From Escherichia coli (GTDB lineage Bacteria; Pseudomonadota; Gammaproteobacteria; Enterobacterales; Enterobacteriaceae), in the NCBI RefSeq assembly GCF_009931435.1, contig NZ_CP043414.1: a DNA stretch of 64,000 bases; one strand, given 5' to 3'. Positions within the stretch are counted from its first letter, which is position 1. Every line of letters begins with the position of its first letter. Shown piece by piece: positions 8,412 through 42,401 of this stretch. The position numbers were made by a program, and so were the translations under genes. The notes beneath the pieces are model-generated. The model was not told the DNA's origin. It searched no databases and worked only from the letters and a program-made list of their open reading frames with translations.

Positions 8412-8425
8412 TGTTCCGGCCCCTT

Positions 8426-9821: not shown

Positions 9822-9910
9822 ACTTTGCTCCTTATGAATGAATTAGCGGTATAAACGAAAAGGCCGCGTCTCCCGGAGAAGACGCGGCCTGATGGATGAA
9901 ATGAAGACGT

Positions 9911-10144: not shown

Positions 10145-10149
10145 ACCGG

Positions 10150-10827: not shown

Positions 10828-10974
10828 GACTGACCTCTGAAATGAACGTACGGTGTTATTGATAATGATGGAAGGTATGCAGTGACTGTTCAGGGAATGA
10901 CGTAGCCGTATATTTAGTTTTCTGTTCAACATATTGTCTCCATACCTGTCGGGACGGCTTTGGCAGGCCGGCGA

Positions 10975-22393: not shown

Positions 22394-22522
22394 GTTACCA
22401 AATCAGAATACCGGATGAACAAAACTGGTGGCTACATCCTGTAGGGATTATGTATTAGTAAGCTCTGGCCATTAGTGCCATTTCAGGTTATGTGATCCTA
22501 CTCACGTAATATGGACACAGGC

Positions 22523-23389: not shown

Positions 23390-23684
23390 TTCAGACGATT
23401 CGCAAAGTATGTCGCGGCCTTTTGGAGGATAGCCAGTTCCTCTGCCTGCTCCGCCAGTTGCCGCTTCAGGCGGGCATTTTCAGCGGCCAGTTCACTTTCA
23501 CGATCTGACGAACTCATTTGTTGCTGCAGTTTGCTGCGCCACGCATAGAGCTGTGATTCATACAGGCTGAGTTCACGGGCTGCGGCAGCAACACCGATGC
23601 GTTCAGCAAGTTTCAGGGCTTCACTGAGAAATTCAGGCGAATGCTGTTTACGGGGTTTTTACTGGTTGATACTGTTTTTGTCAT
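23386..23684 (-). pseudogene. insE: IS3 orfA (insE) with a 1-nt deletion in an A-run
   Basis: ATG at 23684 reads MTKTVSTSKNPVNSIRLNFSVKP then stop. Shifting one base after AGTAAAAA restores KPRKQHSPEF...[15 protein letters not shown] ending at 23386. The span is 299 nt, not a multiple of 3. The ORF track shows no 60-aa or longer minus-strand ORF here. Confidence 0.8.
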
Positions 23685-23851
23685 GTGAGTCACCTCTGAC
23701 TGAGAGTTTACTCACTTAGCCGCGTGTCCACTATTGCTGGGTAAGATCAAGTCTTACTTACCCTGTGAACCATGTTGATATTGATACTATATTGACTATA
23801 TGCCATACAGGTGGTAATGATTAGTTACTACCATACAGGAAAAGGTAGAAA

Positions 23852-25773: not shown

Positions 25774-25775
25774 TA

Positions 25776-26858
25776 TCAGACGATATCTTCTTTACGGAAT
25801 CTCACTTTAAACCGATTAAGGTGAGAAAAAGGTATATTACCTTCATGCTGCAAATATCCCAGTACGATCCCTTTGGATACCCCCATTTTCCTAGCTAACC
25901 GGATGATCTCTTTCCAATGCCGGACACCATAGCGACTAAGTTGCTGCCGGTATTCTTCTGGGATAAGAACATCAACGGCAAATTTATCTGCTTCCTTTTC
26001 CTCTTCCGACGAAAGACTATCTTTACCTTCTACGCGAACTCGGACAGCTTCATGCAAGATGAGATGCCCAATCTCATGAAACAGCGTAAACCAAAAATGG
26101 TCATCGGTCAGATAACGGAAACTCATGACTAGGGTTGCGCGATCTGGTGTAAAAAAGCAGGTAGCACCACTTGCCCGACATCCCTTTGGCGTTGGCAACA
26201 CAACGAGAGAAACTCCAGCAGTGGCGAGAAGGTCGCGAATGTAAGGGATAAAAATCCTCATGTCGGGTTCATTTGTAGCTTTGCGCAGTTCTGGCAACAA
26301 TGCTATCAGCACCTCTTTATCCCATACAGCACAGTTTTGGTTTGAGGTAAGTTGTGCAGCCCTAGTCAGCCACACCAAATCGGCCATAGGCTCGGTTGCC
26401 AGATTAAGAGATTTACGAAAAGCGACCAAAGGAGCATCTGACTGAATTTTATAAAAAAAATCATTGACGGAATTTATTCCGAAAAACGATAGGCAGTGCT
26501 GGAATTTACTTTCCCGAGTTGTAGTTTTGGGGATCCAACCAAACTCCATCATATCACGTACAGGCAATGATTCGAGCCAATCATTATTCACTTTCTCGAG
26601 GTATCCAATTTGCTGGCGATAAGCGACTTCGCGCTTGATCCAGAAGTCTGTCGATACGTTGAATAACTCCTCAAGCTTACAAGCCAGAGACTCATTGAGT
26701 CGGATTTTTCCTTCAAGAAGTTGCTGACCCCGGATAAGAGACAATCCAATCCTCTTACTCAGTTCTTCACCAGAAAGCCCATGTTCATCCATTAGATCTA
26801 TAATTGTATCACCGGGTGGAGATACCCAGTCAGGCTGGAAGTCCTGCGTAACTATCAT
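25776..26858 (-). CDS. XRE-type HTH fused to an ImmA/IrrE-family zinc metallopeptidase
   Basis: 360 aa. N-terminal HTH (LSGEELSKRIGLSLIRGQQLLEG) and C-terminal HExxH (LFHEIGHLILHE). Confidence 0.8.
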   Translation of the reverse strand: MIVTQDFQPDWVSPPGDTIIDLMDEHGLSGEELSKRIGLSLIRGQQLLEGKIRLNESLACKLEELFNVSTDFWIKREVAYRQQIGYLEKVNNDWLESLPVRDMMEFGWIPKTTTRESKFQHCLSFFGINSVNDFFYKIQSDAPLVAFRKSLNLATEPMADLVWLTRAAQLTSNQNCAVWDKEVLIALLPELRKATNEPDMRIFIPYIRDLLATAGVSLVVLPTPKGCRASGATCFFTPDRATLVMSFRYLTDDHFWFTLFHEIGHLILHEAVRVRVEGKDSLSSEEEKEADKFAVDVLIPEEYRQQLSRYGVRHWKEIIRLARKMGVSKGIVLGYLQHEGNIPFSHLNRFKVRFRKEDIV

Positions 26859-27181
26859 TTCACGTCACCTATGAACACTAACCGTATCCGGCTAACTCGG
26901 GACCAGTTAATTGTATTATCTTGATTTTTGGGCTGAACTGTATTCCCACAGACAAATCCCATTTTTACATCACCGAGAATGGTAATTGTAATACACTCTT
27001 CCCCATCCTCAAAGCAGACCTCCGGCGAACCTACGGGCAACAGTAAAATGTTGTCTGTCACGGAAAGATCGGAAAGTCGCGAGCGTAGTCTTGATGCCAC
27101 TTTGTCACCAAAGATCTCATTTGCCTCATGCATACTCTCGCAAATAGTCCTTAACTTCTTGCTTTGAAAGGTAATGAACAA
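26855..27181 (-). CDS. small putative toxin (HigB/killer-protein-like N-terminus) upstream of the HTH-ImmA gene
   Basis: 108-aa ORF overlapping the downstream gene by 4 bp. MFITFQSKKLRTICES resembles the start of HigB-type killer proteins, but the C-terminal family motif is not evident. Confidence 0.4.
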   Translation of the reverse strand: MFITFQSKKLRTICESMHEANEIFGDKVASRLRSRLSDLSVTDNILLLPVGSPEVCFEDGEECITITILGDVKMGFVCGNTVQPKNQDNTINWSRVSRIRLVFIGDVK

Positions 27182-27324
27182 AATTATCCACTTTTATTTT
27201 TCTTGGTTGCTACGTTTATAGCAAACTCAACGCTCATTCACAAAATGAGATGTAGCGAATTAATGGACTCTGCACATATTAAATGTTAATGATGGACTTA
27301 AAATCACGGATTCGTAAGGGAAAC

Positions 27325-27588
27325 ATGAAAGGTAAACATCAAGACACTAAAGCCCTGTCTGACGTGCTAGCGGAAATGCAACGGCAGGATGCCAAATGGG
27401 GGGCAGACCGTAATCAAGATCCTTTTATCTGGGGAGCGATTCTCGGAGAAGAGGTGGGAGAATTTCATCAGGCTGTCCTCCATGATCGTTTTGGTGGTAA
27501 AGCAGCCGGTACCAGTAGGGAGGAAGCAGTACAAATTGCTGCTGTTGCACTGCAAATCATCGAATATTATGATCGCGTAATAGATTGA
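27325..27588 (+). CDS. MazG-like all-alpha NTP pyrophosphohydrolase (small form)
   Basis: ATG at 27325 preceded by AAGGGA. KWG....W..ILGEEVGEFHQAV...EEAVQIAAVALQIIEY fits the MazG-type EExxE metal motif and helical pattern. Confidence 0.6.
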   Translation: MKGKHQDTKALSDVLAEMQRQDAKWGADRNQDPFIWGAILGEEVGEFHQAVLHDRFGGKAAGTSREEAVQIAAVALQIIEYYDRVID

Positions 27589-27862
27589 TAAATTAGAATT
27601 AATCAACTAAGAGTCTTTTACACGCGAAGATGAACTCTGGCAGCCATCTACCTTCGTGGGCCTGTAGAACACATCTAATTGCAATACTCCCAGTTAATCA
27701 CTAACCAGCCTCTCCAGTAAGGCTGGTCGATTAGGTTTAATTAAACAGATATAACAAGCAATTCACTTGGTATTACGCGGTTCACACAGACTTCTTTAGT
27801 TGTGTCATATCCTATAACTTTCAGAGGCTTATTTACGGTATTATCACGAACGGTGCAAAAGT

Positions 27863-28710
27863 GGCTCTTCCGCAACCTAGGTGGAGATTTTCATGCCAGT
27901 GGACTCATTACCCTCTGCCTAAGTAGTTCAAATCCGGCTCGACCATACATCAGACGTTTCAGCATCTTCAGGCGATTTACATGACCTTCGACAACACCGT
28001 TACTCCAGCGGCTGCTGGTTGCCTCACATATAGCCGCGGCATCAGCTTCCATCCCCGCAGCCACGCGCCGAAGTTCTGCTGAACCGTTTTCGTGGACTCG
28101 AGTGAACCAACTGCTTAGATTTGATTTATTTGGGGTTTTCAGAATACGGTAGAACTCAAGTACTAGTTGCTGCGCTATTTTCAGCGCCGGTTCTTTTTCA
28201 CACATCAGACTAATAAATCGGGAAGCATAATTTTCTTCACCCCTGATTATTATCCAGGGCATCAACCAGCGGCTTACCCGGGACACTGAAGGAAGTCTGG
28301 CGGCAGTAGTAACTGGTGGGTTCCAGCCTTTACGCCATTTGGCAACAGCATCCCTGACGATGGTTTCACTGCCTGTAACCCCCGGGCCACCATTTCCCGC
28401 CATATCCAGTCGCTGGTGTGCTGAATTGGTCATGTATGAAGGAAGATATCAATGGTGGTATCTCCCTTTCAAAAGGAAGTGAAAAGCTTGATGCCTGCTG
28501 CCAGGCAATCAATATTACGTGCTTTTAACGACTATCCTAAATGGTGGTAGCTATGCAGAGCTCCCGGTCCTAGCGCTGGGAGCTTATCGCTTATCTTTAC
28601 CGTAAGCGTAAACGGACCGCCGTATGTAGCCATTAAACCAGTATTGGTAACGTAGATACCCACCTTTTCAAAAGGGAAGTGGATAAAAGATAGCGAAAAT
28701 GCGAAGAGTT
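27863..28710 (-). mobile_element. internally deleted ISL3-family element (remnant)
   Basis: GGCTCTTCCGCA-type terminal repeat at 27863 and an inverted ...GCGAAGAGTT end near 28710. It encloses only the C-terminal part of a transposase gene. Boundaries are approximate. Confidence 0.5.
27891..28433 (-). pseudogene. ISL3-family transposase, C-terminal fragment
   Basis: 180 aa ending ...SSRWSNGVVEGHVNRLKMLKRLMYGRAGFELLRQRVM, the conserved ISL3 transposase C-terminus. The N-terminal half is missing. Confidence 0.75.
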
Positions 28711-29012
28711 GATTAATGCATTGAAACAAAATTCATTAATGATGAACTTGGAGAAAAGCTCCATCGTTTTATTGGCTCAAAAAACATATCCCATAGATGA
28801 TCAGCCATACCTTCATTGGTTAGCAAGGTATCCTGTGAGTAGCCATGGCTGAAGATGCCCATTGATGGGCGAAAACCAAGGATCTGACCGTTAGAGCAGT
28901 TATGTCGTTAAACACATCACCACCATATGCCATCCGGCTCACTTCGTCGGCCAAATTAGTGTGATATTCTTTCCAGAAATGCTGTTGTATCCACGACATA
29001 AGGCGATGATTG

Positions 29013-32000
29013 ATGGAGCAGTCTCTCAATTTTGAAATGTTGCGCAGCCAGTGGCCGGAACTGGCTGAACTCGCGTGTATGGCGGAACGCTATGTTCACT
29101 CCGATCCGGAAAGTTGTCTGGTCAAGCTGCGCAACTACACTGAATTGATGGTGCGCTGGTTGTATCGTCAGGAGCGGTTGCCGGAAGGTATTAAGGCTAA
29201 TCTTTACGATTTAATGAATGCTGATGTCTTTACCAGCATGATGCCGGAAGCCATCATCATGAAAATGGATGCGCTGCGTATCCATGGCAACCGTGCCGCG
29301 CACGGCGGACGTATCAAAGCTAAAGATACTTACTGGCTGCTCAAAGAAGCGTATTTGTTGGGAATTTGGCTGTATGTTCGCTACGCCCACGGTAATGTTG
29401 ATGACTGCCCCAAATTTACACTCCCTCCATTAACACAATCTTCAGGTCGTGCAGATGAAAAACGTCTGGAAGATGCAATCAGGGCTCAGGATGAAAGCCG
29501 TGAGCGCGAACTGGCGCTGCAACGCGCACTACAGCAAGAACAGGAAAAGGCCGAACACCTCACTCAACGCCTGAATGAAGCCAGAGCGCGTAACCAGCAT
29601 GTTGCCGATATTCTCTCTATTGATGAAGCGGAAACCCGCCGTCGCCTGATTGACTCTCGCCTGCTTGCTGCTGACTGGAATGTAGGCGAAGGCCTTAAAA
29701 ATACCGATCAGGTTACGCAGGAACATCCCGTTAAAGAACAACCTACCGCGACCGGAGACGGTTATGCGGACTATGTCTTGTGGGATGAGGCACACAAACC
29801 GCTGGCGGTGGTGGAAGCAAAAAAAACCAGCGTCAATGCCGAGCAAGGACGAATTCAGGCCCGGCTGTATGCAGACTGGCTGGAAAAAGAATACGGCCAG
29901 CGTCCGATCATCTTCTACACCAACGGCTATGATATCTGGCTGTGGGATGACCATAAAACTCATGGTTATCCCCCGCGTCGGGTGTTTGGCTTCTACAGCA
30001 AGGAAAGCCTGCAATATCTTATTCAACAGCGTGAAACCCGTCTTCCGCTGAACAGTGTGCCGTACGTAAAAGATAACGAAGGTAAGGCCGTTGCCGGACG
30101 TTTGTACCAGCTTGAAACCATTGCCCGTGTCAGCGAGCGGTTTACCAACAAATACCGGCAATCGCTAATTGTTCAGGCTACGGGTACAGGCAAAACCCGC
30201 GTGGCAATAGCGCTAAGCAAACTGATGATTGATGCCCGCTGGGTAAAACGCGTCCTGTTTCTTTGCGACCGCAAGGAACTACGTAAACAGGCGGCGAATG
30301 CCTTTAATCAATTCACCAATGAGCCGCTGTATGTGGTCGGGAAATCGAAAAAAGCAGACAGGCAGAATGCTAGGATCTACATCGCCACCTATCCTGGTAT
30401 GATGAAAATCATGGACCATTTCGATGTTGGTTATTTCGATTTGATCATCGCCGATGAATCCCATCGCTCTATCTACAACGTTTACGGCGATCTGTTTAAG
30501 TATTTTGATGCCCTCCAGATTGGCCTGACGGCCACGCCGATTGACATGGTGAGTAAAACCACTTTCGGCCTGTTTGGTTGTGAAGGACGTATTCCTACCG
30601 CCAACTACAGCCTGGAAGATGCCATCGCCGATAACAATCTGGTTCCCTATGAGGTTGTCACGCACACCACAGAATTCCTGCGCGAAGGCATCAAACGGGA
30701 GAAATTAAGCGACGCACAAATCCGCGAGCTGGAAGAACAAGGCATAGATCCCAATACGCTGGAGTTTGATGGCAAGGCGCTGGATGAGGCGATCTACAAC
30801 AAAGACACCAACCGCTATATCCTGCGTAACCTGATGGAAAATGGCCTGAAAGATCGGGACGGCCAGTTGCCAGGTAAAACCATCATTTTCGCCCGTAACC
30901 ACAAACACGCGCTGCTGTTGAATGAATTATTCGACGATATGTACCCGCAGTTTGCCGGGCGCTTCTGCCAGGTCATCGACAATTACGATCCCCGCGCCGA
31001 GCAACTGATTGATGATTTTAAAGGGCTGGATGAAAGCACCAACAAAGAGCTGACCATCGCTATCTCCGTTGACATGCTCGATACCGGTATTGATGTCCCG
31101 GAAATTGTGAATCTGGTCTTTGCCAAACCGGTCAAATCAAAAGTGAAGTTCTGGCAGATGATTGGCCGTGGTACGCGCCTCTGTCCGGGGTTGTACGGTT
31201 ACGACGATAACGGCAAACCTCTGGATAAACAGAAATTCCGCATTTTCGATCACTGGGGCAATTTTGAGTATCACGAACTGCATACCGAAGAGGCCGAAGT
31301 CACAGCGACAAAATCGCTTGCACAAAAACGCTTCGAAGCGTGGGTTATGCTGGGGGCCGCTGCGCAACGTAAATTCGACAAACAGGCGGTGGATTTAGTT
31401 GCTCACCAGCTACGCGAGCAAATCAATGCACTGGATGAAAAGTCGATTGCCGTCCAGGAAAAGTGGCATCAAAAAGCGCAGTACAGCGATGAAAAAGTGC
31501 TGCGCCAGCTTTCCCCGAAAACACAGCAGGATTTGCTATCTGTCCTGGCCCCGCTGATGCAGTGGCTGGACGTGCGCGGGCAAAGCGACGCTATGCGCTT
31601 TGATATGGATATTCTGGCGGCGCAAACTGCCCGTTATACCAACCCGGAAGAGCTGGATGTGCTCTGGCCGGTCATCGTCGAAAAAGTGGAGCGCCTGCCG
31701 CCGCATTTGGCGCAAGTCCAACAGCAAGGACCGCGGATCAATCAGCTTCGTGATTTAGGCTGGTGGAAGCAGGCCAGCCTGGAAGAGCTGGAAGATATCC
31801 GCATTCATCTGCGCGGCATCATGCACCTGATGGAAAAAGACGCGACGCCGAAATTTGGTTCGATACAGGTGGATATTACCGAAGATGCGAACCTGATTCA
31901 GACGGAAAACCGCAAAACCAACATCCGCTCGATTGACTTCAAACTCTATCGCCAGCAGGTGCAGGGAGCGCTGGAGCCGCTGTTCCAGCAAAATCCGGTG

Positions 32001-32426
32001 CTGAAGAAAATCCGCAACGGCGAGCCTGTGACGCAAAGCGAGCTGGATGAACTGGCTAAACTGGTGCTGATCCAGAACCCTAACGTTGATATCCGGGCAC
32101 TGAAAGAGTTCTACCCGCAGGCGACCGCCAGCCTGGATAAACTATTGCGTACCATCATCGGGATGGACAGCGACGCGGTGGAAGTGCGCTTTGCTCAGTT
32201 CGCCGCTGATAACAGCCTGACCAGCCAGCAATTGCGCTTCCTGTCATTGCTGAAAAACCACATTCGCGATTACGGCACCATTGAAATGCGGCAGCTCTTT
32301 GAACAGCCTTTTACGCATATCCACAACGAAGGCGTTACCGGTGTGTTCCCTGATATAGAGCAGATCGCCCGCCTACAAAAGATAGTCGAAGAGCTGGGTG
32401 TTGTGACCGACGCAGCAACGGTATAA
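29013..32426 (+). CDS. hsdR: type I restriction enzyme R subunit (HsdR) with a DUF4145-like N-terminal domain
   Basis: ATG at 29013 (the ORF track starts at TTG 29010). PD-(D/E)xK GYADYVLWDE...VVEAKK. SF2 helicase motifs QATGTGKT and DESH. EcoEI-type C-terminal domain. Confidence 0.9.
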   Translation: MEQSLNFEMLRSQWPELAELACMAERYVHSDPESCLVKLRNYTELMVRWLYRQERLPEGIKANLYDLMNADVFTSMMPEAIIMKMDALRIHGNRAAHGGRIKAKDTYWLLKEAYLLGIWLYVRYAHGNVDDCPKFTLPPLTQSSGRADEKRLEDAIRAQDESRERELALQRALQQEQEKAEHLTQRLNEARARNQHVADILSIDEAETRRRLIDSRLLAADWNVGEGLKNTDQVTQEHPVKEQPTATGDGYADYVLWDEAHKPLAVVEAKKTSVNAEQGRIQARLYADWLEKEYGQRPIIFYTNGYDIWLWDDHKTHGYPPRRVFGFYSKESLQYLIQQRETRLPLNSVPYVKDNEGKAVAGRLYQLETIARVSERFTNKYRQSLIVQATGTGKTRVAIALSKLMIDARWVKRVLFLCDRKELRKQAANAFNQFTNEPLYVVGKSKKADRQNARIYIATYPGMMKIMDHFDVGYFDLIIADESHRSIYNVYGDLFKYFDALQIGLTATPIDMVSKTTFGLFGCEGRIPTANYSLEDAIADNNLVPYEVVTHTTEFLREGIKREKLSDAQIRELEEQGIDPNTLEFDGKALDEAIYNKDTNRYILRNLMENGLKDRDGQLPGKTIIFARNHKHALLLNELFDDMYPQFAGRFCQVIDNYDPRAEQLIDDFKGLDESTNKELTIAISVDMLDTGIDVPEIVNLVFAKPVKSKVKFWQMIGRGTRLCPGLYGYDDNGKPLDKQKFRIFDHWGNFEYHELHTEEAEVTATKSLAQKRFEAWVMLGAAAQRKFDKQAVDLVAHQLREQINALDEKSIAVQEKWHQKAQYSDEKVLRQLSPKTQQDLLSVLAPLMQWLDVRGQSDAMRFDMDILAAQTARYTNPEELDVLWPVIVEKVERLPPHLAQVQQQGPRINQLRDLGWWKQASLEELEDIRIHLRGIMHLMEKDATPKFGSIQVDITEDANLIQTENRKTNIRSIDFKLYRQQVQGALEPLFQQNPVLKKIRNGEPVTQSELDELAKLVLIQNPNVDIRALKEFYPQATASLDKLLRTIIGMDSDAVEVRFAQFAADNSLTSQQLRFLSLLKNHIRDYGTIEMRQLFEQPFTHIHNEGVTGVFPDIEQIARLQKIVEELGVVTDAATV

Positions 32427-32438
32427 TACGCACATGAC

Positions 32439-32465
32439 AAGCCCCGGCAGCGGGGCTTTTGTATT
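32439..32465 (+). terminator. rho-independent terminator after hsdR
   Basis: aaGCCCCGgcagCGGGGCtttt: GC-rich 6-8 bp stem, 4-nt loop and a T-run, 13 bp after the hsdR stop. Confidence 0.7.
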
Positions 32466-32489
32466 TAAAACAGGATATAAAAGCTAACA

Positions 32490-34124
32490 ATGATCACTGG
32501 TGACTTAAAAAGTAAAATCGACGGCCTGTGGGAAGATTTCTGGGTGGGTGGTATCACCAACCCGCTGACCGTAATCGAACAGATCACCTATCTAATGTAT
32601 TCCCGGATGCTGGATACTCAGGAACAACGCGACGAGAAGCGTAAACAAATCGCGGGTATTGATTTTAAACCGCGTTTTGCACCAGAACAGCAGGAGTTCC
32701 GTTTCAGTCACTATAGCAATCTTGGCTCGGATGAGATGATGGAAGTGGTGCGCGATGGTGTATTCCAGCATTTTCGTCAGCTCGGCCAGGCTGATGCGTC
32801 GAAGGTAACGCTGCTGGGCAACTTTATGAAAGATGCCCGTCTGGAGATTGTTAAGCCTTCATTGCTGACCAAAGCGGTTGAGGTGATCAAAAACCTGCCA
32901 TTGGATCGCGGCGACACCAAAGGCGACCTTTACGAATACCTGTTAAGCAAGCTGACCACTGCCGGAATCAACGGCCAGTTTCGCACACCGCGCCACATTA
33001 TCCGCACGATGGTTGAAATGATGGAGCCGAACCCCGCCCGCGGCGAGACGATTTGCGATCCGGCCTGCGGCACCGGTGGCTTTCTGGCAACCAGCTATGA
33101 ATATCTACTGGAGAAGTACAGCTCGCTGGAATCCATTCATACCGAGATTGGCACCAACGAACGTGGTGAGCTGGAAGAGCAAAAAATCTTTACCGGCGAT
33201 CTGTTGACCCCGTGGCGTAACCATGTGGATAACAATATGTTCCACGGTTACGACTTTGACACCACAATGTTACGTATCGCCGCCATGAACCTGATTATGC
33301 ACGGCGTGGAAGCGCCGGATATCCACTATCAGGACACCATGAGCCAGAGCTTCAGCACAAACTTCCCGCAGGCCAGTAAAAACGCTTTCAACCTGATTCT
33401 GGCAAACCCGCCGTTTACCGGTTCACTGGACGAAGAAGATATCGACTCCACGCTGTCGGCAATGGTGAAAACCAAAAAAACCGAACTACTGTTCCTGGCG
33501 CGTATTCTGCAAATGCTGAAAGTGGGCGGGCGCAGTGCCACTATCGTGCCGCAGGGCGTGCTGTTTGGCTCCAGTAAGGCGCACCAGTCACTTCGCAAAA
33601 CGCTGGTGGAAGATAACCAACTGGAAGCGGTGATCAACCTGCCTTCCGGCGTATTTAAACCTTACGCTGGCGTGGCGACGGCGATCCTGATCTTTACCAA
33701 AGGCGGTCAGACGGACGAGGTCTGGTTCTACGATCTGCAAAATGATGGCTACAGCCTGGATGACAAGCGTAACCCAATTAAAGACAACGACCTGCCGCAT
33801 CTGCTGGCAAGCTGGAAGCATTACCGTACTTTACGCGGGCTGCCGGTTGATAACTTTATGGGTGAGAAATTAGCCTCGTTGCTTAAACAGCAGCACCCGG
33901 AAGGGATTGATGTTGGCGTTGATTTTAAAGATCGCACGCAGGCGGCGTTTGTAGTTCCAAAAGAAGATATTGCTGCGCAGAAATACGATCTCTCTATTAA
34001 TCGTTATAACGAAGTGGTGTATCAGGCGGAGGAGTATGAAGATCCGAAGGTGATACTGAAACGATTAAAAGATCTGGAAAAAGAGATTCTGGCGGATCTG
34101 GATGAGCTGGAGGGGATGCTGTGA
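32490..34124 (+). CDS. hsdM: type I R-M N6-adenine DNA methyltransferase (HsdM)
   Basis: 544 aa. AdoMet motif DPACGTGGF and catalytic NPPF ([10 protein letters not shown]). Confidence 0.9.
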
Positions 34125-35287
34125 GTTGTCGTTATTTAAAAATTGAGGATTTTTGTAGCACCGGTAGCGGTGGAACACCCAGTAGGTCAAAGCCTGAGTA
34201 TTATGAGGGGGGAGATATCCCTTGGATTAAATCAGGAGACCTTAAAGATTCAAAAATTTATGAAGCAAATGAGTACATTACAGCCGCAGGGCTAGAAAAT
34301 AGCAGCGCGAAAATAGTTGAGAAAGACTCAATCTTAATAGCAATGTATGGAGCCACTGTTGGTCGCTTAGCAATTTTAGGAATTAATGCAGCCACGAATC
34401 AAGCTATTTGCAATATCAGGCCAGATACGACAATTGCTGATATGAAGTATCTCTATTACTTCTTGAAGAGCAAGTTCAGCTATTTTGTCGAAAATGCGGT
34501 TGGTGGGGCTCAACCTAATATTAGCCAAGGATTGATTAAGTCATTAGAAGTTCCCCTACCTTCTTTAGATGAACAAAAGCGTATCGCAGATATTCTTGAT
34601 AAAGCTGCTGGTGTATGCCAAAAACGCGAGCAAGCTATCAAACTGGCTGATGATTTTTTGCGGGCTAAGTTTCTAGAGATGTTTGGAACTCCTGCAAACA
34701 ACATACATCGTTTCCCGAAAGGAACGATTCGCGACTTGGTTGATTCAGTAAATTATGGAACTTCAGCAAAAGCCTCTATTGATTCTGGTGAATATCCTAT
34801 ATTACGGATGGGTAATATAACATATCAAGGTAGGTGGGATTTTACAGATTTAAAATATATTGATCTCAGTGTAAAAGAAAAGGATAAATATTTGGTTAAA
34901 GAAGGCGATCTTCTTTTCAATCGTACTAACAGTAAGGAACTTGTTGGTAAAACAGCTGTGTATGAAGAAGACAGGCCTATGGCATTTGCTGGATATTTAA
35001 TCCGCGTTAGACCTAATTCTATCGGAAATAACTACTATATTTCAGGGTATCTTAATTCCATCCATGGCAAAATCACATTGATGAATATGTGTAAAAGTAT
35101 TGTTGGCATGGCTAATATTAATGCACAGGAATTGCAGAATATAGAGATATTAATCCCACCTAAGCATCTACAAGATGAGTATGAGATTATTTATAAAAAA
35201 ATAAAAAAAGGACTAAGCATTTATGATAAAAGCGCAATGCAACTTCAACTTTTAGCATCAAACCTATCGAATAAATATTTCATGTAA
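34121..35287 (+). CDS. hsdS: type I R-M specificity subunit (HsdS), two target-recognition domains
   Basis: 388 aa. GTG start overlapping the hsdM stop (GTGA). Conserved central and C-terminal helices (LPSLDEQKRIADILD..., IPPKHLQDEY). Much more AT-rich than hsdR and hsdM. Confidence 0.85.
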   Translation: MSCRYLKIEDFCSTGSGGTPSRSKPEYYEGGDIPWIKSGDLKDSKIYEANEYITAAGLENSSAKIVEKDSILIAMYGATVGRLAILGINAATNQAICNIRPDTTIADMKYLYYFLKSKFSYFVENAVGGAQPNISQGLIKSLEVPLPSLDEQKRIADILDKAAGVCQKREQAIKLADDFLRAKFLEMFGTPANNIHRFPKGTIRDLVDSVNYGTSAKASIDSGEYPILRMGNITYQGRWDFTDLKYIDLSVKEKDKYLVKEGDLLFNRTNSKELVGKTAVYEEDRPMAFAGYLIRVRPNSIGNNYYISGYLNSIHGKITLMNMCKSIVGMANINAQELQNIEILIPPKHLQDEYEIIYKKIKKGLSIYDKSAMQLQLLASNLSNKYFM

Positions 35288-35295
35288 GGTTCATT

Positions 35296-36918
35296 ATGAA
35301 ATTAACTAAACTTGTACTTGAAAATTTCAGATCTGTTAGAGAGCGGCAGGAAATTGATTTTGCACCTGTAACATTACTATTGGGGCCAAACAGCGCGGGC
35401 AAGACTACTATTTTAATTGCATTATTTTATCTTCAACAAATATTAGACCGTGAGCAGTGTGATCCTATATATTTAGAAGCTATGGGGAACAGGCGCATAG
35501 ATGGATTTAGATCTCTAGTCCATAATGGGGATCTGAATAATGTAATTACTATTGGTATCGGTTTCGATCCTGAACAAACAATAGGTGTAGAATATAAAAC
35601 ATATTTAGAAGAACTTGGTGATATTTTCGATATTCATTTTATAAAAATGAAAGACATTGCAGATGAAACTGAAAAGGTTTATGTAGAATTTAAAATCGCA
35701 TGGTCACAATTGCACAGAGCAGCATATATAAAGAACTATGCTGTTTCTATAAATAATGAATTTATTGGAGAGCTAAGTAATGATGAGTATACTAAATCAT
35801 CTTTAGTAAATAGATTGAACTTTACTCATCCGTTGCTTCTTCCTATTGATTATAATTTATGGCTTGAATCTATTGATAAGGAAGGATTAGATACGATTGC
35901 CAGTGAATTTGAAATATCTTTAAATGACTTAATTCCTGGCTTAGAACGTAATAAAAGTGGTGCAACAGAGCGAGTAAAAACTGTTGATTATATATTTGAA
36001 GAAGATAAAGAAAAACCAATGTTTCCTGTTTTTTTAAAGACGAAAATTGGTGCGTTACCTCAACTGGGAAGAACTGTTGATACAAATTTGAAAGTTTTTG
36101 ATATATCCGAGCCAGTTGAGTATTTTAATCGAGATATAATCACCAGAGTGCTAACGCAAGTTTTTACTTCTCCGTTAGATAAATTAAATAATTATTTAAA
36201 GGCTAGCGTATCTATTGGACCGTTAAGAATTATACCTGATTCTTCATTTACGCCAAATCCTTATCCAGAACAAAATGGATGGTTTGATGGTACATCAGCA
36301 TGGGATAAGCTGTGTTTATCTCAACAAAATGATAGTGATTTGATTAAAAAAGTAAGTGATTGGTTTTCCAATAGAGATAAACTAAACACTAATTATAATA
36401 TATTTAGTGGAGGAGAATTTGATATAAAAACCTCCCCTCAACTTTTAGGTCTGAAAGATAATGTTTACTTCTGTAAAATAGATTCAAGCCAAATGTTATT
36501 TCCAAATCAAGTCGGTGTCGGATTAACTCAGATAGCACCTCTTATTATTGCAGCCAATATAGTTCAGGATGGATTAATTGCTATAGAGCAGCCTGAGCTA
36601 CATATTCATCCCGCTTTACAACTCGCTGTAGGTGATCTGTTTACCCAATATCCCCTTGATGTTAAAAGACCTATGTTTTTAGTCGAAACACATAGTGAGC
36701 ACATTTTGCTTCGAATTTTAAAAAGAATTAGACAAACAACGGACAATGAATTACCTGAATCAAATTACCCAGTAAAACCTGATTTTATATCAGTGATCGT
36801 TTTCGAGGATAATAATGGTTCGACTGTTACTAGGAAAATAGATATTACTGATGATGGTGACTTCAAACAAAAATGGCCCAAAGGTTTCTTCGAAGAAAGA
36901 AGGGGAGAGCTTTTTTAA
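35296..36918 (+). CDS. ABC/AAA_15-21-type ATPase (OLD/PtuA/AriA-like nucleotide-binding architecture)
   Basis: 540 aa, starting 8 bp after hsdS. Walker A GPNSAGKTT, Walker B/D-loop IAIEQPELHIHP, H-loop ETHSEHIL, with a long insertion between the Walker motifs. C-terminal KWPKGFFEERRGELF. Confidence 0.75.
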   Translation: MKLTKLVLENFRSVRERQEIDFAPVTLLLGPNSAGKTTILIALFYLQQILDREQCDPIYLEAMGNRRIDGFRSLVHNGDLNNVITIGIGFDPEQTIGVEYKTYLEELGDIFDIHFIKMKDIADETEKVYVEFKIAWSQLHRAAYIKNYAVSINNEFIGELSNDEYTKSSLVNRLNFTHPLLLPIDYNLWLESIDKEGLDTIASEFEISLNDLIPGLERNKSGATERVKTVDYIFEEDKEKPMFPVFLKTKIGALPQLGRTVDTNLKVFDISEPVEYFNRDIITRVLTQVFTSPLDKLNNYLKASVSIGPLRIIPDSSFTPNPYPEQNGWFDGTSAWDKLCLSQQNDSDLIKKVSDWFSNRDKLNTNYNIFSGGEFDIKTSPQLLGLKDNVYFCKIDSSQMLFPNQVGVGLTQIAPLIIAANIVQDGLIAIEQPELHIHPALQLAVGDLFTQYPLDVKRPMFLVETHSEHILLRILKRIRQTTDNELPESNYPVKPDFISVIVFEDNNGSTVTRKIDITDDGDFKQKWPKGFFEERRGELF

Positions 36919-37814
36919 TGTTCTACGAATGCGCCATTTCACCAGAGGCTTTGTTTGAGATCGCAATTGATCGGAGAAATTATCGTGACTTCATAAAAGG
37001 ATTTTCTACGGGCGGTAACTTTCTCTATAGTGAATTACCAAAGCTGAAGAGAAATAAAAAACAATTGCTTGGGCTATTAAATGCTAATCATAGTGAACTT
37101 CAAAAAAAACGATTAGAGGACCTTATTATTTTTTTGAAAAATAATAAGGTTAGTAGGGTTTATGATTATGTTGGTGACATGTCATGGTCAGATAACATCT
37201 CTGCTGTAAATCGAATTGAACAATTTGATCATGTAGTGAGTTCTACTCCTTGTGATAACCTTGATGTAACTAATATAGATGATTTCTTTGGGTTAAATTA
37301 TGCTCGGCAAAAAATTGTTGCTAGAATTGCTGAGGATATGATATCTATAATCTCACGCTTATTAAAAACATCAGAGCATATTATTATAGTTGACCCATAC
37401 TTTAGTGACAAACAAAGATGGTGGAATGTATTTATTTCATTACTTAGCGTTAGTGCTAATAACTCTTATAAAAAAAATTTAAAGATAGATGTTATATTTG
37501 ATGGGAGTAAAGAAAACTCCCCAACGGTGAATTATTTGGCTAATAAGTTGAACCGCGAAAACCTTGTCTTTCCAGACGATTTTAAATTATCAGTAACATT
37601 TAAGTCTTTAACTTCTCGCGAGGGTAATGAACGTCTGCATAATAGATATGTTCTTTCTAATGTTGCTGGAGTTTGTTTCATGCATGGTTTAGATGAGGGA
37701 GAAGGAACGGATGATGTCTCAATTTTGTCGAAAGAGGGATATAATAAAAGATGGGAACATTACACTACGAATAATGTTTTTGATTTAATAGAAGAGCGTG
37801 AAGTTATATGTTAA
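36918..37814 (+). CDS. hypothetical partner of the ATPase (possible PLD-fold-like C-terminal module)
   Basis: ATG at 36918 overlaps the ATPase stop (TAATG). 298 aa. C-terminal pattern IIIVDPYF ... LHNRYVLSN..G..FMHGLDEG. No Toprim, HNH or HEPN motif seen. Confidence 0.55.
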   Translation: MFYECAISPEALFEIAIDRRNYRDFIKGFSTGGNFLYSELPKLKRNKKQLLGLLNANHSELQKKRLEDLIIFLKNNKVSRVYDYVGDMSWSDNISAVNRIEQFDHVVSSTPCDNLDVTNIDDFFGLNYARQKIVARIAEDMISIISRLLKTSEHIIIVDPYFSDKQRWWNVFISLLSVSANNSYKKNLKIDVIFDGSKENSPTVNYLANKLNRENLVFPDDFKLSVTFKSLTSREGNERLHNRYVLSNVAGVCFMHGLDEGEGTDDVSILSKEGYNKRWEHYTTNNVFDLIEEREVIC

Positions 37815-37913
37815 GTATTTCCCTTACTGTTTTCAATTAAATCCTACAAACTTATTAGGACCCTTTAAAATTTATTCAACACGCCAATAAAAAATCTAAT
37901 TCTATTAATCTTG

Positions 37914-37940
37914 ACCTGGTCTATCAAAATGATAGACCAG
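37914..37940 (+). terminator. perfect 12-bp hairpin downstream of the operon (possible terminator)
   Basis: CCTGGTCTATCA-aaa-TGATAGACCAGG about 100 bp after the last gene. Only a weak T-rich tail follows. Confidence 0.4.
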
Positions 37941-38036
37941 GCTTCTGTTATCTACATTACTTCTAGTGAAATAGCCAACCAATCGTCCCTATAAGGCAGG
38001 TTAAATAGTTTTAATTTAGCAAATTTGATAAACAAC

Positions 38037-38270
38037 TCACTCGCCATTACCCCGATTGATCTTCGCATAGTCAAACGGCGTAATCGCTCTCTCCCGATTG
38101 GCATCCAGAAAATCTGCCCACCACTGCAGCATCAGCTTGCGCTCATCCAGATGCTCCGCTTTATGGATATACGCTGCCTGCACTGAGTTACGTCCATGTG
38201 GCTCATCTGACGTTCAGCCGCTTTATCTCGTGCTGTTCTGGTCTCAATACTTCCATGCCGTTGCAATTAC
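38037..38270 (-). pseudogene. P4/CP4-type tyrosine integrase, C-terminal remnant with a frameshift
   Basis: The minus strand reads ...DEPHGRNSVQAAYIHKAEHLDERKLMLQWWADFLDANRERAITPFDYAKINRGNGE then stop (38037-38039). AERQMSH lies in another frame upstream. The rest of the gene is absent. Confidence 0.7.
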
Positions 38271-38497
38271 CTCTTAAACCATTCCTTACCATTTTCATGT
38301 CTTCGATAAGAAATCTTCATCATGCATGATCGATTTTGTCGATCGATTCGATCGAATTTTCTCTTTTTACCCTGCCTTTTGCATGGTTTTAAAATAGGCA
38401 AAATTACTTGTCATTCGTGGAAAATGATGGCGGAGATAACTGAGCTTAAAAAGTTTCTCTTGTCTCCGTCACTTGCCATACCAGCCAGGAAAAGAAG

Positions 38498-38866
38498 ATG
38501 TCAGCACAAGAAAAAACAGTACAGATTGATTCTTTTGATGCGAAATTTTTAGATATAAATACATTAAGCAAGCTTATCTATGAACGTAAGAGTTTTGTGA
38601 TAGAAAATGTTTCCGATGTTAGTGAAACGGTAAAAAGAGTGGAGCATGAAATAGAGAAAAGGAAATTAAGTTGTCGTGTATATACTGAGTACAGGAGCAC
38701 AGCTTTAGCTGGTTCTTTATGGTCACCAACCGTAATTCTGGGAGTGGCGAGTGCAGTAGCAATAGGTGTTCATAATTTATCTACATGGAACCCCGATTAT
38801 GAAATCGGTAAGAACTATATTAAACGGAGATTATCGGTAAAATATAAAAAGGCAGAAGTATTGTGA
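38498..38866 (+). CDS. hypothetical small protein with one predicted TM segment
   Basis: 122-aa AT-rich ORF with hydrophobic stretch PTVILGVASAVAIGV. No homology recognised. Confidence 0.3.
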   Translation: MSAQEKTVQIDSFDAKFLDINTLSKLIYERKSFVIENVSDVSETVKRVEHEIEKRKLSCRVYTEYRSTALAGSLWSPTVILGVASAVAIGVHNLSTWNPDYEIGKNYIKRRLSVKYKKAEVL

Positions 38867-39083
38867 TCGGTTACTCCAGTGCCCCTGCCTGTTCGTATTC
38901 TGGTGAGGTTGTATACACATAATTTCAGGCTGGCGTTCACGTCCTCACTGAGGAAATATATTTATTTTGTGTAGAGTAAAAGTCTGGCTTCCGTAGTGTG
39001 GAGGGGGGAGGCTGCCTTTAGTCCGGTTTTTAAATATTAAAAATATATATTAAAGTGATGATACAATAACGGAGATAATTGAA

Positions 39084-39830
39084 ATGAAAAAGGTTTTTGC
39101 TGTTTCAGTGGTGGGCGCAGCCTGTGTATTTGCAGCAAATGCAGGTGCTGAGGACGGTAAAAGCGGTTTTTATCTGACCGGTAAAGCCGGTGCCTCTGTG
39201 GTGTCACTTTCAGACCAGCGTTTCCTGTCAGGAGATGAAGAAGAAACGTCAAAGTATAAAGGTGGGGATGACCATGACACGGTATTCAGTGGCGGTATCG
39301 CAGCCGGTTATGATTTTTATCCGCAGTTCAGTATTCCGGTTCGTACAGAACTGGAGTTTTACGCACGTGGAAAAGCTGATTCGAAGTATAACATAGATAA
39401 AGGTAAAGGCAGCTGGTCAGATGGTTACTGGCGTGATGACCTTAAGAATGAGGTATCACTCAACACTCTGATGCTGAATGCATACTATGACTTCCGGAAT
39501 GACAGTGCATTCACACCATGGGTATCAGCAGGGATTGGTTACGCCAGGATTCATCAGAAAACAACCGGTATCAGCACCTGGGATTACGGGTACGGATACA
39601 GTGGTCGTGAATCGTTGTCACGTTCAGGCTCTGCTGACAACTTCGCATGGAGCCTTGGCGCGGGTGTTCGCTATGACGTAACCCCGGATATCGCTCTGGA
39701 CCTCAGCTATCGCTATCTTGATGCAGGTGACAGCAGTGTGAGTTACAAGGACGAGTGGGGCGATAAATATAAATCAGAAGTTGATGTTAAAAGTCATGAC
39801 ATCATGCTTGGTGTGACTTATAACTTCTGA
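39084..39830 (+). CDS. hra: Hra1/Hek/Tia-family outer-membrane adhesin/invasin (8-stranded beta-barrel)
   Basis: 248 aa. Signal peptide MKKVFAVSVVGAACVFAANAGA and terminal ...GVTYNF. The sequence matches heat-resistant agglutinin 1/Hek as recalled. Confidence 0.85.
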   Translation: MKKVFAVSVVGAACVFAANAGAEDGKSGFYLTGKAGASVVSLSDQRFLSGDEEETSKYKGGDDHDTVFSGGIAAGYDFYPQFSIPVRTELEFYARGKADSKYNIDKGKGSWSDGYWRDDLKNEVSLNTLMLNAYYDFRNDSAFTPWVSAGIGYARIHQKTTGISTWDYGYGYSGRESLSRSGSADNFAWSLGAGVRYDVTPDIALDLSYRYLDAGDSSVSYKDEWGDKYKSEVDVKSHDIMLGVTYNF

Positions 39831-39908
39831 CGACACTGCTTCTGAACGATAATTGCGCATATTTCTGCAATTAAGATAATTACGTATTTCTGTAATTAAA
39901 AAGGAACA

Positions 39909-39945
39909 CCCTGCAGTAATATTATACTGCAGGGTTGTCTGTTAT
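39909..39945 (+). terminator. rho-independent terminator after the hra-like gene
   Basis: CCCTGCAGTA-atatta-TACTGCAGGG followed by a T-rich tract (ttgtctgttatctgttt). Confidence 0.7.
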
Positions 39946-40014
39946 CTGTTTCACAGATAACTTCTGATTTTTATTATCCTGTTCTCTTCATAATAATGTT
40001 GTCGATATACTCCG

Positions 40015-41517
40015 ATGAATATAAGAAAACTGTTTTGTCCGGGCAACACTCCCCGGATTATATTGTTTTTATTCTTTTTTGTTGTTTCTGTCATAACCAC
40101 AATTGCATGCGGATACACTGAGAAGAATGCCACCGGGAATGTGTTGCTGCTGTTCCTTCTTCTGCTCCTTGCACACAGAAATACCCTCACATCCATTACA
40201 GCGCTGTTATTTCTGTTCTGTTGTGCACTGTATGCGCCTGCCGGTATGACGTACGGAAAAATCAACAACAGTTTTATTGTCGCGTTGTTGCAGACCACGG
40301 CGGATGAGGCTGCGGAGTTTACCGGGATGATTCCTGTTTATCATTTTCTGGTCAGTGCCGCGATTCTGGTGTTCATGGTTATTTTCTGGCGGACACACCA
40401 CCGTGGTCAACGTAACGCGATGGCTCTGTTGTTATTCGTATTATGCTCTGTAAACAGCTGGCCGTTACGGATGGTTAAAGGAACAGTTGTGGGGACAACT
40501 GACACATTGCGTGAAATGCAGCGTTATGAACAACTGAGTCGGCACGGTGCTGACAGCTGGAAAATCCTGCCGGGAGCACCATTATATGACACGATTGTTA
40601 TTGTTACTGGTGAGAGTGTCCGCAGGGATTATATGTCGGTATATGGTTATCCCGAGCCAACCACACCATGGCTGAATACGGCTCCCGGTTTATTTATTGA
40701 CGGTTATACATCGGCAGCAGCCAGTACCGTACCTTCCCTGAGCCGGACACTGATTTATGACTATGAGCAGAACCCTGACTCCGGCAACAACGTGGTGGCG
40801 CTGGCAGCAAAAGCAGGATACAGCACATGGTGGATATCCAATCAGGGAAAGCTGGGGGAGCATGATACACGCATCTCTGTTATTGCTTCTGATGCGGAGC
40901 ATACCGTTTTCCTCAAGAAAGGCAGCTTTGCTTCCCGTAAAACGGATGACATGTTGTTGTTACAGGAAACAGAACGTGCGCTGGCAGATACATCCACTCC
41001 GAAGGTGATTTTCCTGCACATGATGGGGTCTCATCCGAACCCGTGTGATCGGCTTCACTCCTGGCAGAATAATTACCTGGAGCAGTATTCCCGAAAAATT
41101 GCCTGTTATCTTGCCAGCATCAGTAAACTGGATAACTTTCTCGGTCAGCTTGATGGTATCCTTCGCCGGTATTCCCGTCATTTTGCCATGCTTTACTTTT
41201 CTGACCATGGGCTGTCGGTCAGCGACAGTGCTAATCCTGTTCATCATGATGGTCATGTGCAGGGAGGCTACAGCGTTCCCCTGATTATTACCGCCAGTGA
41301 CATCACGTCTCATCAGTCTGTCAGCAGAAAAATCAGTGCCCGTCATTTCGCAGGTATTTTTCAGTGGCTGACCGGCATTCGTACTGAAAATATACCGCCA
41401 TTCAATCCGCTGACAGACGAAGATAATGAACCCATTATGGTTTTTAACGGAGACAAGAATGTACCGACAGACAGCCTTGAGTCACAGCCTCTGATTCTTC
41501 CGGGCAAGGGAAAATAA
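40015..41517 (+). CDS. phosphoethanolamine transferase-family membrane sulfatase-fold enzyme
   Basis: 500 aa. N-terminal TM helices. Periplasmic domain motifs VIVTGESVRRDYMSVYGY and HMMGSHPNPCDR, typical of the EptA/YhbX family. Confidence 0.75.
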   Translation: MNIRKLFCPGNTPRIILFLFFFVVSVITTIACGYTEKNATGNVLLLFLLLLLAHRNTLTSITALLFLFCCALYAPAGMTYGKINNSFIVALLQTTADEAAEFTGMIPVYHFLVSAAILVFMVIFWRTHHRGQRNAMALLLFVLCSVNSWPLRMVKGTVVGTTDTLREMQRYEQLSRHGADSWKILPGAPLYDTIVIVTGESVRRDYMSVYGYPEPTTPWLNTAPGLFIDGYTSAAASTVPSLSRTLIYDYEQNPDSGNNVVALAAKAGYSTWWISNQGKLGEHDTRISVIASDAEHTVFLKKGSFASRKTDDMLLLQETERALADTSTPKVIFLHMMGSHPNPCDRLHSWQNNYLEQYSRKIACYLASISKLDNFLGQLDGILRRYSRHFAMLYFSDHGLSVSDSANPVHHDGHVQGGYSVPLIITASDITSHQSVSRKISARHFAGIFQWLTGIRTENIPPFNPLTDEDNEPIMVFNGDKNVPTDSLESQPLILPGKGK

Positions 41518-41703: not shown

Positions 41704-41979
41704 GTGGCTTCTGTTTCTATCAGCTGTCCCTCCTGTTCAGCTACTGACGGGGTGGTGCGTAACGGCAAAAGCACCGCCGGACATCAGCGCTATCTCTGCT
41801 CTCACTGCCGTAAAACATGGCAACTGCAGTTCACTTACACCGCTTCTCAACCCGGTACGCACCAGAAAATCATTGATATGGCCATGAATGGCGTTGGATG
41901 CCGGGCAACCGCCCGCATTATGGGCGTTGGCCTCAACACGATTTTCCGCCATTTAAAAAACTCAGGCCGCAGTCGGTAA
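41704..41979 (+). CDS. insA: IS1 InsA
   Basis: 91 aa, [43 protein letters not shown]... Confidence 0.95.
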
Positions 41980-42401
41980 CCTCGCGCATACAGCCGGGCA
42001 GTGACGTCATCGTCTGCGCGGAAATGGACGAACAGTGGGGCTATGTCGGGGCTAAATCGCGCCAGCGCTGGCTGTTTTACGCGTATGACAGGCTCCGGAA
42101 GACGGTTGTTGCGCACGTATTCGGTGAACGCACTATGGCGACGCTGGGGCGTCTTATGAGCCTGCTGTCACCCTTTGACGTGGTGATATGGATGACGGAT
42201 GGCTGGCCGCTGTATGAATCCCGCCTGAAGGGAAAGCTGCACGTAATCAGCAAGCGATATACGCAGCGAATTGAGCGGCATAACCTGAATCTGAGGCAGC
42301 ACCTGGCACGGCTGGGACGGAAGTCGCTGTCGTTCTCAAAATCGGTGGAGCTGCATGACAAAGTCATCGGGCATTATCTGAACATAAAACACTATCAATA
42401 A
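41898..42401 (+). CDS. insB: IS1 InsB frame (expressed as InsAB' by -1 frameshift at the A6C run, 41955-41961)
   Basis: The 167-aa frame matches IS1 InsB. The slippery A-run ttaaaaaac lies at the insA end. Confidence 0.9.

Follow-up and report, generated by a model that had tools for sequence, protein, structure and literature searches.

What do two genes do that sit at the 3′ end of a type I restriction-modification (R-M) operon and that RefSeq labels "AAA family ATPase" and "hypothetical protein"? We addressed this question for a 64,000-nucleotide (nt) stretch of the Escherichia coli contig NZ_CP043414.1 (assembly GCF_009931435.1), hereafter the window, in which the hsd operon and the ATPase/effector pair are set in a genomic island at tRNA-Sec (selC). 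A preliminary description of this DNA had reported a 540-amino-acid (aa) open reading frame (ORF) beginning 8 nt after hsdS and overlapping, through the sequence TAATG, a 298-aa ORF, and this arrangement is confirmed in the sequence; it had also found no named system to which the pair could be assigned. Profile and structure comparison now places the two proteins beside NsnB and NsnC of the Menshen system and beside the cassette PDC-M55, which lowers the novelty of the locus without making the pair a full member. We put the probability at about 0.6 that the pair is a self-contained ATPase–effector anti-phage module of the Menshen NsnB/NsnC kind, devoid of NsnA and borne as cargo at the 3′ end of the type I R-M operon.

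The upstream gene encodes an ABC ATPase related to NsnB

Judged by its sequence, the 540-aa protein encoded at 35296–36918 (plus strand, as are all hsd and pair features below) is an OLD/AAA_15-type ABC ATPase. The OLD-like nucleotide-binding architecture proposed earlier was recovered by both Pfam (AAA_15 at 1e-22, AAA_21 and SMC_N) and PADLOC, and no NCBIfam family scored above its cut-off. The best PADLOC models were PDC-M55A (1.4e-40) and NsnB (3.2e-37), followed by HEC-03B (7e-25) and AriA (5.5e-22), and the GajA, PtuA and Old profiles covered mainly the first 45–60 residues. PADLOC, Pfam and conservation within the family together point to an ATPase of the NsnB/PDC-M55A type.

All motifs quoted in the preliminary description are present in the two proteins (GPNSAGKTT, IAIEQPELHIHP, ETHSEHIL and the tail KWPKGFFEERRGELF in the ATPase; IIIVDPYF, LHNRYVLSN and FMHGLDEG in the partner), and those of the ATPase were placed in an alignment of 69 ATPases from related loci. 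The Walker A motif GPNSAGKTT (residues 30–38; 35383–35409) follows a pattern, GxNSxGK(S/T), that is at least 93% conserved in the 69 members. A variant ABC signature, QVGVGLTQ (36508–36531), has GxG replacing SGG; its family form is DVGxGxSQ, and G407, G409 and Q412 are invariant. At the Walker B/D-loop IAIEQPELHIHP (about residues 429–439; 36577–36612), E431-Q432 stands where D-E is usual, with E431, P433 and E434 invariant and Q432 97% conserved. In the H-loop ETHSEHI (36685–36705; ETHSEHIL spans residues 464–471), E464 through E468 are invariant, and GPxR311 is conserved across the family. The C-terminal DUF3696-type tail GDFKQKWPKGFFEERRGELF (36856–36915) corresponds to the invariant family tail GxFxxxWPxGFFxER..EL, in which G521, F523, W527, P528, G530, F531 and F532 never vary; the Pfam match to DUF3696 itself, over residues 495–539, scored 0.0024, under the curated cut-off.

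The partner joins a PIN-like domain to a PLD-fold domain

The 298-aa partner (36918–37814) belongs to no Pfam, PHROG or NCBIfam family, and PADLOC returned weak matches alone (NsnC, 0.0027; mad2, 0.009). A profile search of PDB sequences yielded nothing meaningful. Pfam found no Toprim, HNH or HEPN domain in either protein, in agreement with what had been noted for the partner. AlphaFold 2 (AF2) modelling with a 51-sequence alignment reached a pLDDT of 94.5, whereas close enterobacterial homologues alone gave an unusable model (pLDDT 45.8). Structure comparison of the better model resolves a PIN-like N-terminal domain (about residues 1–125; 36918–37292) and a C-terminal PLD-fold domain of MIT_C or PB-PLD1-like type (37305–37811). 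Foldseek assigned the PLD fold with a probability of 1.0, and in the structure comparison the PLD-fold nucleases NucT, Nuc, SauUSI, Zucchini, BfiI and PLD3/4 scored equally well. The earlier comparison with an MIT_C-type PLD module was thus right about the fold and had missed the N-terminal PIN-like domain. The Pfam family MIT_C (PF16565) did not match the window partner; it matched one of 78 relatives, at E = 0.0012, and these searches gave nothing else.

A word-indexed search with the single protein recovered only relatives of at least 74% identity, and an exhaustive profile search went further, to a family of 1018 clusters at 50% identity (E ≤ 1e-3) whose best full-length members have about 300 aa. 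Conserved across this family are M1, E4, P9, P41, R65 and W90; D159-P160 in VDPYF (D159 at 37392–37394); the motif H241-N-R243-Y-x-L-T-[D/E]248 (H241-N-R243 at 37638–37646); and G257-L-D259. D159, H241 and R243 are essentially invariant. An alternative start at 36873, which would give a 313-aa ORF, was rejected: every homologue starts with M-[IF]-[YH]-E, and the conservation of M1 is 97%.

The partner has the PLD fold, and its motif departs from that of the PLD superfamily: HxR(x)4[D/E] in the family against HxK(x)4D, with HNRYVLSN in E. coli, where lysine is replaced by arginine and aspartate by asparagine. A single HxK-like motif per chain is common to the partner and to the PLD-fold nucleases and MIT_C proteins (Nuc, NucT, Zucchini, BfiI, SauUSI; MITD1), from which it differs in the arginine, the PIN-like fusion and its association with an ABC ATPase that would control it. 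Nuc, NucT and Zucchini form their active site on dimerization, and with a single motif per chain the active site of the partner would therefore be formed by a dimer. In the E. coli PIN-like domain, the four acidic residues of PIN catalysis are not all present.

The pair resembles Menshen and PDC-M55 but lacks a DUF262 gene

Menshen comprises NsnA, NsnB and NsnC (Millman et al. 2022; Li et al., NAR 2025, PMC12065111), and its antiphage activity is cited in PMC12065111 as experimentally validated in one host. In NsnB, SGG is changed to GxG, the Walker B D-E to E-N and the Q-loop glutamine to arginine, and a DUF3696 helix is present (PMC12065111). The window ATPase shares with it an AAA_15 domain with a DUF3696 tail, the GxG, a conserved GPxR and an amide residue after the Walker B acid; it differs in reading E-Q rather than E-N and, at 540 aa, in carrying a much larger insert than the 345-position NsnB profile, which it matches in part. 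For the NsnC class termed "inPIN + PB-PLD1", the nearest profile is MIT_C, and an acidic residue follows one strand while H-D-R precedes another (PMC12065111). The window partner is of like build, with a PIN-like N-domain and a PB-PLD1-class toxin domain (D159, H241-N-R243), but has H-N-R where NsnC has H-D-R. Among 51 relatives of the partner, PADLOC matched NsnC weakly in five and BrxL in five; the BrxL matches fit the report that a PB-PLD1-like domain also occurs at the C-terminal ends of numerous BrxL proteins (PMC12065111). Menshen and the pair are both often linked to type I R-M, Menshen also to BREX, and many relatives of the pair, unlike Menshen, stand under an RtcR-like/sigma-54 regulator.

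PDC-M55 is a candidate cassette found in BREX, DISARM or type I R-M loci (Payne et al., bioRxiv 2024, 10.1101/2024.01.29.577857), and its ATPase model, PDC-M55A, is the best match to the window ATPase. It has three genes, encoding the ATPase, a family 2935 protein (B) and a DUF262 protein (C), and can be viewed as a Menshen-like system whose gene order is permuted. The pair has two genes and no C-type gene in the window, and the PDC-M55B models in PADLOC matched neither the window partner nor its 51 relatives.

The third Menshen protein, NsnA (ParB-DUF262 plus ParBDB), is absent from the window and from about 76 of 80 related loci. The DGxQR motif occurs in no ORF of the hsd–pair region, the two six-frame matches in the window contain stop codons, and the RefSeq annotation of the island holds no DUF262 gene. 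Across the 80 loci, motif searches and iterative searches turned up DUF262 proteins in four only (L031, L063, L049 and L055). In L031 and L063 a DUF262 gene lies downstream of the partner and matches PDC-M55C, HEC-05 and, weakly, NsnA; in L049 a GmrSD-type DUF262 gene lies between hsdM and hsdS. In the Thiorhodococcus locus (L055:5484-8293), the ATPase is directly preceded by several short co-oriented ORFs and a DUF262 fragment of 90 aa. This fragment may be a decayed NsnA-like gene hinting at a three-gene, Menshen-like ancestry and, like the arrangement in L031 and L063, it would fit either descent from three-gene forms or exchange with them. DUF262 was not found among ten genes directly upstream of the ATPase; genes in that position included an RtcR-like activator, NACHT, AAA_13, OLD-like and BrxL proteins, a helicase and further ABC ATPases. 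Without NsnA the pair is not a full Menshen member; it is a relative of Menshen and PDC-M55 that normally has no DUF262 gene.

Several observations weigh against an assignment to the NsnB/NsnC kind. The NsnB and PDC-M55A profiles match the ATPase in part (two stretches, about 130 bits), so that, on sequence, it counts as a relative and not as a clear member. The sequence link between partner and NsnC is weak (E = 0.0027), the match to PB-PLD1 being one of fold and motif description. The E. coli partner also departs from its own family, with S for D/E at position 8, F for R35, V for E97 and N for D at position 248.

Other systems built on related ATPases are further removed. HEC-03, a validated two-gene system in which both an ABC ATPase and a VapC-like PIN protein are required, likewise has an ABC ATPase with a PIN partner embedded in another defence system, and its model covers the C-terminal half of the window ATPase (7e-25). 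Its partner, however, is a single active VapC-like PIN domain without a sequence match to the window partner, whose PIN-like domain, without the complete acidic set, is joined to a PLD domain. In PARIS, Septu, Gabija, OLD and AbiL/Rlo an OLD-type ABC ATPase likewise scaffolds or controls a nuclease, but the effectors there are Toprim, HNH or helicase (UvrD-type) proteins, none of which is found in the pair. PrrC and RloC fuse the ATPase to an anticodon-nuclease domain within hsd loci, whereas the window has two genes and a PIN/PLD effector, and no PrrC or RloC model was among the 25 best of the 127 PADLOC families matching the ATPase. Miller and colleagues reportedly described, in 2005, rlo genes embedded in type I R-M loci.

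That an OLD-type ABC ATPase with an interchangeable effector can reside in an R-M locus is accordingly already known (Rlo, PrrC, PARIS, HEC-01 to HEC-04, Menshen), and for the domain architecture of both proteins Menshen provides a published precedent. New here are a very large, unnamed and unmodelled family of NsnA-less NsnB/NsnC-type pairs, the strength of its link with type I R-M and with RtcR-like/sigma-54 control, and its occurrence in about 5% of E. coli genomes. A literature search for WP_000499116 and WP_000778955 returned nothing, literature searches of incomplete coverage found no paper describing the pair, and the BREX-diversity paper does not mention the module.

The pair is conserved as a unit and often follows an hsd operon

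The type I R-M system of the window is complete, with hsdR, hsdM and hsdS all present and intact by Pfam domains and RefSeq annotation. hsdR (1138 aa; 29010–32426; Pfam DUF4145, HSDR_N, ResIII/helicase and EcoEI_R_C; labelled as DEAD/DEAH helicase family in RefSeq) is followed by hsdM (544 aa; 32490–34124; N6_Mtase at 1e-60 and HsdM_N) and hsdS (388 aa; 34121–35287; Methylase_S in two stretches). A terminator-like hairpin in the hsdR/hsdM gap (32439–32458; 8-bp stem, six G-C pairs) suggests that hsdR and hsdMS–ATPase–effector are separate transcripts. Between the end of hsdS at 35287 and the ATPase start at 35296, by contrast, there are 8 nt, preceded by AAGG, and the scan for terminator-like hairpins found none; the short gap and the lack of an intervening terminator imply one transcript for hsdS and the pair, which is probably co-transcribed with hsdMS and in E. 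coli presumably expressed by read-through from it. The operon closes with a hairpin of a 12-bp stem (six G-C pairs), a 3-nt loop and a T-rich tail, the top-ranking terminator-like site across the 10-kb region scanned; the preliminary description had recognized it, with coordinates one base off (37915–37941 is correct). Rfam gave 0 matches within 27000–40000. The G+C content is about 51% in hsdRM and 38–41% in hsdS, dropping sharply at the hsdS start, and 30–37% in the pair, which argues that the pair and hsdRM are of different origin.

In 78 of the 80 sampled loci the ATPase lies directly upstream of the partner, as would be expected of the unit proposed at the outset. These loci come from Proteobacteria, Desulfobacterota, Binatota, Latescibacterota, Planctomycetota, Acidobacteriota, Nitrospirota and other phyla. 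The distance matrices of the two proteins are correlated (Mantel r = 0.71, a value reached by 0 of 999 permutations), and the pairing is far beyond chance. The pair is also under purifying selection: against Enterobacter orthologues, dN/dS is 0.19 for the ATPase (codon alignment) and 0.18 for the partner, compared with 0.02–0.03 for hsdR and hsdM. In one Latescibacterota locus (L023), tandem paralogous pairs at 5491–8150 and 8352–10951 have partners related at an hhalign probability of 99.8% and only 19% identical, so the module duplicates and diversifies in place. An EH_Signature protein (P0210) was discarded as a spurious partial match.

The suggestion that the pair travels with hsd loci was borne out, the association with type I R-M being much more frequent than expected by chance. 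A co-oriented type I R-M system is present in 30 of the 52 loci that were informative, that is, had at least 6 kb of upstream sequence (58%), often with the pair immediately after hsdS. HsdS is immediately adjacent in 18 loci and, in 17 more, lies upstream beyond other, often defence-related, genes; intervening or neighbouring genes encode OLD-like, AAA_13, BrxL, NACHT, Dsr1-like and GmrSD-like proteins. A Nitrospira genome has hsdR-M-S-ATPase-partner in exactly the E. coli order, with 25% identity in the partner, and one further representative, looked up independently, has this arrangement again. In at least 22 of the 52 informative loci the flank examined contains no R-M genes, on which ground the idea that the pair needs R-M was rejected.

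Among 5426 complete E. coli genomes the pair occurs in 273 (about 5%), always on the chromosome, and about 250 of them have it intact, at 99% identity or more; the hsdRM type of the window was found in 427 genomes. In GPEC1210 the ATPase is truncated by an IS3 family transposase gene, and in one strain IS1 lies inside the pair. tblastn found no copies in phages and two distant matches in plasmids. The E. coli strain B-766 (L086, 13485–15492) has the same hsdRMS type with other cargo after hsdS, namely 582-aa and 88-aa hypothetical proteins, followed by a 5′-nucleotidase gene and a gene for a phosphorothioated-DNA-binding restriction endonuclease. Because the B-766 cargo differs and insertion sequences (IS) interrupt the pair in other strains, the post-hsdS position is an exchangeable cargo slot, a swap site for candidate defence genes.

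A proposed mechanism

In AlphaFold 3 models of Menshen (NsnB4–NsnC2), the NsnC PIN-like domain is clamped by the tails of an NsnB dimer. By homology with these models and with PARIS and Septu structures, the window ATPase would oligomerize, and its paired DUF3696-type tails, which are predicted to dock the effector, would hold the PIN-like N-domain silent. A phage signal, picked up probably by the ATPase's large and variable insert, would then alter ATP binding or turnover, the latter probably slow because of the Walker B E-Q, and the effector would be released or switched on. Its single-copy PLD-type HxR domain, acting as a dimer, would cleave phosphodiester bonds, most likely in nucleic acid, and so stop the phage or kill the cell. 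The analysis itself shows the anatomy of the genes, their motifs, the fold, the conservation as a unit and the links with R-M and RtcR-like regulators; complex, trigger, substrate and defence phenotype are inferred.

If such an NsnB/NsnC-type module works without a ParB-DUF262 sensor, either the ATPase itself senses infection or the R-M system or RtcR-like regulator signals to it, and function without NsnA would bear directly on how Menshen is triggered. The ABC-ATPase defence superfamily would also gain a PLD-type effector, and in a tractable host, and the family alignments could supply a new model for defence-annotation tools.

Alternative readings of trigger, control and chemistry

A specific version of the trigger step, rather than a different machine, is a PARIS-like sentinel: the ATPase would detect inhibitors of type I R-M, such as DNA mimics of the Ocr/ArdA type, and free the effector as a backup when restriction is blocked. 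A second line of defence that responds to an inhibited R-M, on the model of prrC/rlo-type genes, had been suggested in the preliminary description and is a conjecture. The pair is tightly appended to hsdS here, in Nitrospira, in Enterobacter and in many other loci, and 58% of informative loci place it behind type I R-M. In PARIS, moreover, the trigger is an anti-restriction protein and the ABC ATPase scaffold releases its nuclease, and the AriA profile aligns to the window ATPase over its full length (positions 1–373 of 373, E = 5.5e-22). NsnB and PDC-M55A nevertheless score far above AriA, the partner has no match to the Toprim/DUF4435 effector AriB in Pfam or PADLOC, the same type of hsdRM carries other cargo after hsdS in E. 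coli, and at least 22 of the 52 informative loci lack R-M in the flank, all of which makes a dedicated anti-restriction trigger rather unlikely.

The second alternative concerns control. The commonest neighbour, a protein family seen in 33 loci, has about 500 aa and combines RtcR/CARF, Sigma54_activat and AAA-lid domains; its gene sits directly before the ATPase or before hsdR, with and without R-M (L007, L012, L015, L017, L020, L027, L032, L036, L043, L047, L053, L056, L060, L061, L063 and others). Among the 52 informative loci, 25 have an RtcR-like gene, 10 have both this gene and R-M, and seven have neither. A −24/−12 promoter, TGGCAC-N5-TTGC with 0 or 1 mismatch, is present in 17 of 26 short intergenic regions that follow the RtcR-like gene and precede the ATPase or hsdR, nine of them perfect matches, against a background rate of 0.045 per kb per strand; L020:8278-8292 and L053:2243-2257 are examples. 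In several genomes the whole hsdRMS-plus-pair operon is apparently driven by sigma-54, which is odd for R-M. RtcR-like activators had been linked to R-M systems (Makarova et al., 2014); that the link holds for the ATPase–effector pair even without R-M is new with respect to that report. It offers a concrete, testable route to inducible immunity.

The pair might be an RNA-damage-induced module, silent in most lineages until its RtcR-like CARF/sigma-54 activator detects damaged RNA or some other CARF ligand, whereupon the effector acts on RNA, with control by the activator lost in E. coli and expression there left to hsdMS read-through. The frequency of the activator with and without R-M and the near-consensus promoters fit this account, as do the proposal that Salmonella RtcR responds to tRNA halves with cyclic-phosphate ends and the prediction that the inPIN domains of Menshen bind RNA (PMC12065111). 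Against it, tblastn found no RtcR-like gene or fragment in the window, sigma-54 sites there are at chance level with none upstream of hsdR, the CARF domains are divergent, and the account explains regulation and not effector chemistry. We judge it unlikely. A broader and equally tentative version, more speculative than probable, takes the pair as a distinct, widespread two-gene immune system with an ancestral RtcR-like CARF/sigma-54 switch, with the E. coli copy as a constitutive derivative driven by R-M; elsewhere the module, and in some genomes the whole R-M operon too, would be transcribed only on an RNA-damage or nucleotide signal. On this broader version the pair would form a second layer of immunity, induced through transcription, that links the sensing of tRNA or RNA damage to restriction and abortive defence.

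A third alternative questions the chemistry: the PLD-fold domain might be a phospholipid-directed abortive effector, an MIT_C-like membrane anchor or a non-catalytic adaptor instead of a nuclease. The replacement of the HKD lysine by arginine would be in keeping with this, but the invariance of H241 and R243 argues for catalysis, the nucleases listed above score equally well against the model, and every other class of NsnC C-terminal effector whose fold can be assigned is a nuclease (PMC12065111). No transmembrane or lipid-binding signature turned up, with no search aimed at these, and we find a role other than that of a nuclease very doubtful.

That the type I enzyme has the two proteins as accessory subunits, or that they are decaying cargo, is highly improbable: the shared transcript implied by the 8-nt gap and missing terminator, and the IS insertions in some strains, would suit it, but the pair is found in many lineages with no R-M at all, remains intact in about 250 of the 273 E. 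coli genomes that have it, is under purifying selection and, at 30–37% G+C against about 51% in hsdRM, has a separate origin.

Other features of the island

The NsnA-less module has a defence context in E. coli that includes, on the selC island, a dGTPase family gene and toxin–antitoxin genes. Several features were compared with RX24, from which the island coordinates 6737–8908 and 21140–27588 were transferred by alignment and are approximate. The first target-recognition domain of hsdS (34129–34564) is unrelated to that of RX24, and the rest matches at 99.6–99.9%; the same hsdRM and pair therefore carry different specificity alleles.

Upstream of the R-M genes lie a dGTP triphosphohydrolase-family gene (about 21140–22372, minus strand), a thymidylate synthase gene overlapping a 314-aa hypothetical gene (about 23852–25773, plus), a divergent 360-aa XRE regulator (about 25776–26858, minus) and a MazG-like gene (about 27325–27588, plus), which may represent further nucleotide-directed defence or counter-defence. 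An annotated antirestriction protein (about 8423–8908, minus) and a CbtA/YeeU toxin–antitoxin pair (about 6737–7569, minus) are also present, so that one island carries both a restriction system and an anti-restriction gene. The match between window and RX24 ends beyond about 42416. Between 11000 and 16597, about 5.6 kb with several ORFs of 200–376 aa occupy a place where RX24 has only an IS3 family element, and downstream of the operon a gene for an outer-membrane protein and one for a phosphoethanolamine transferase of 500 aa (39084–41517 and 41704–42401) adjoin IS1.

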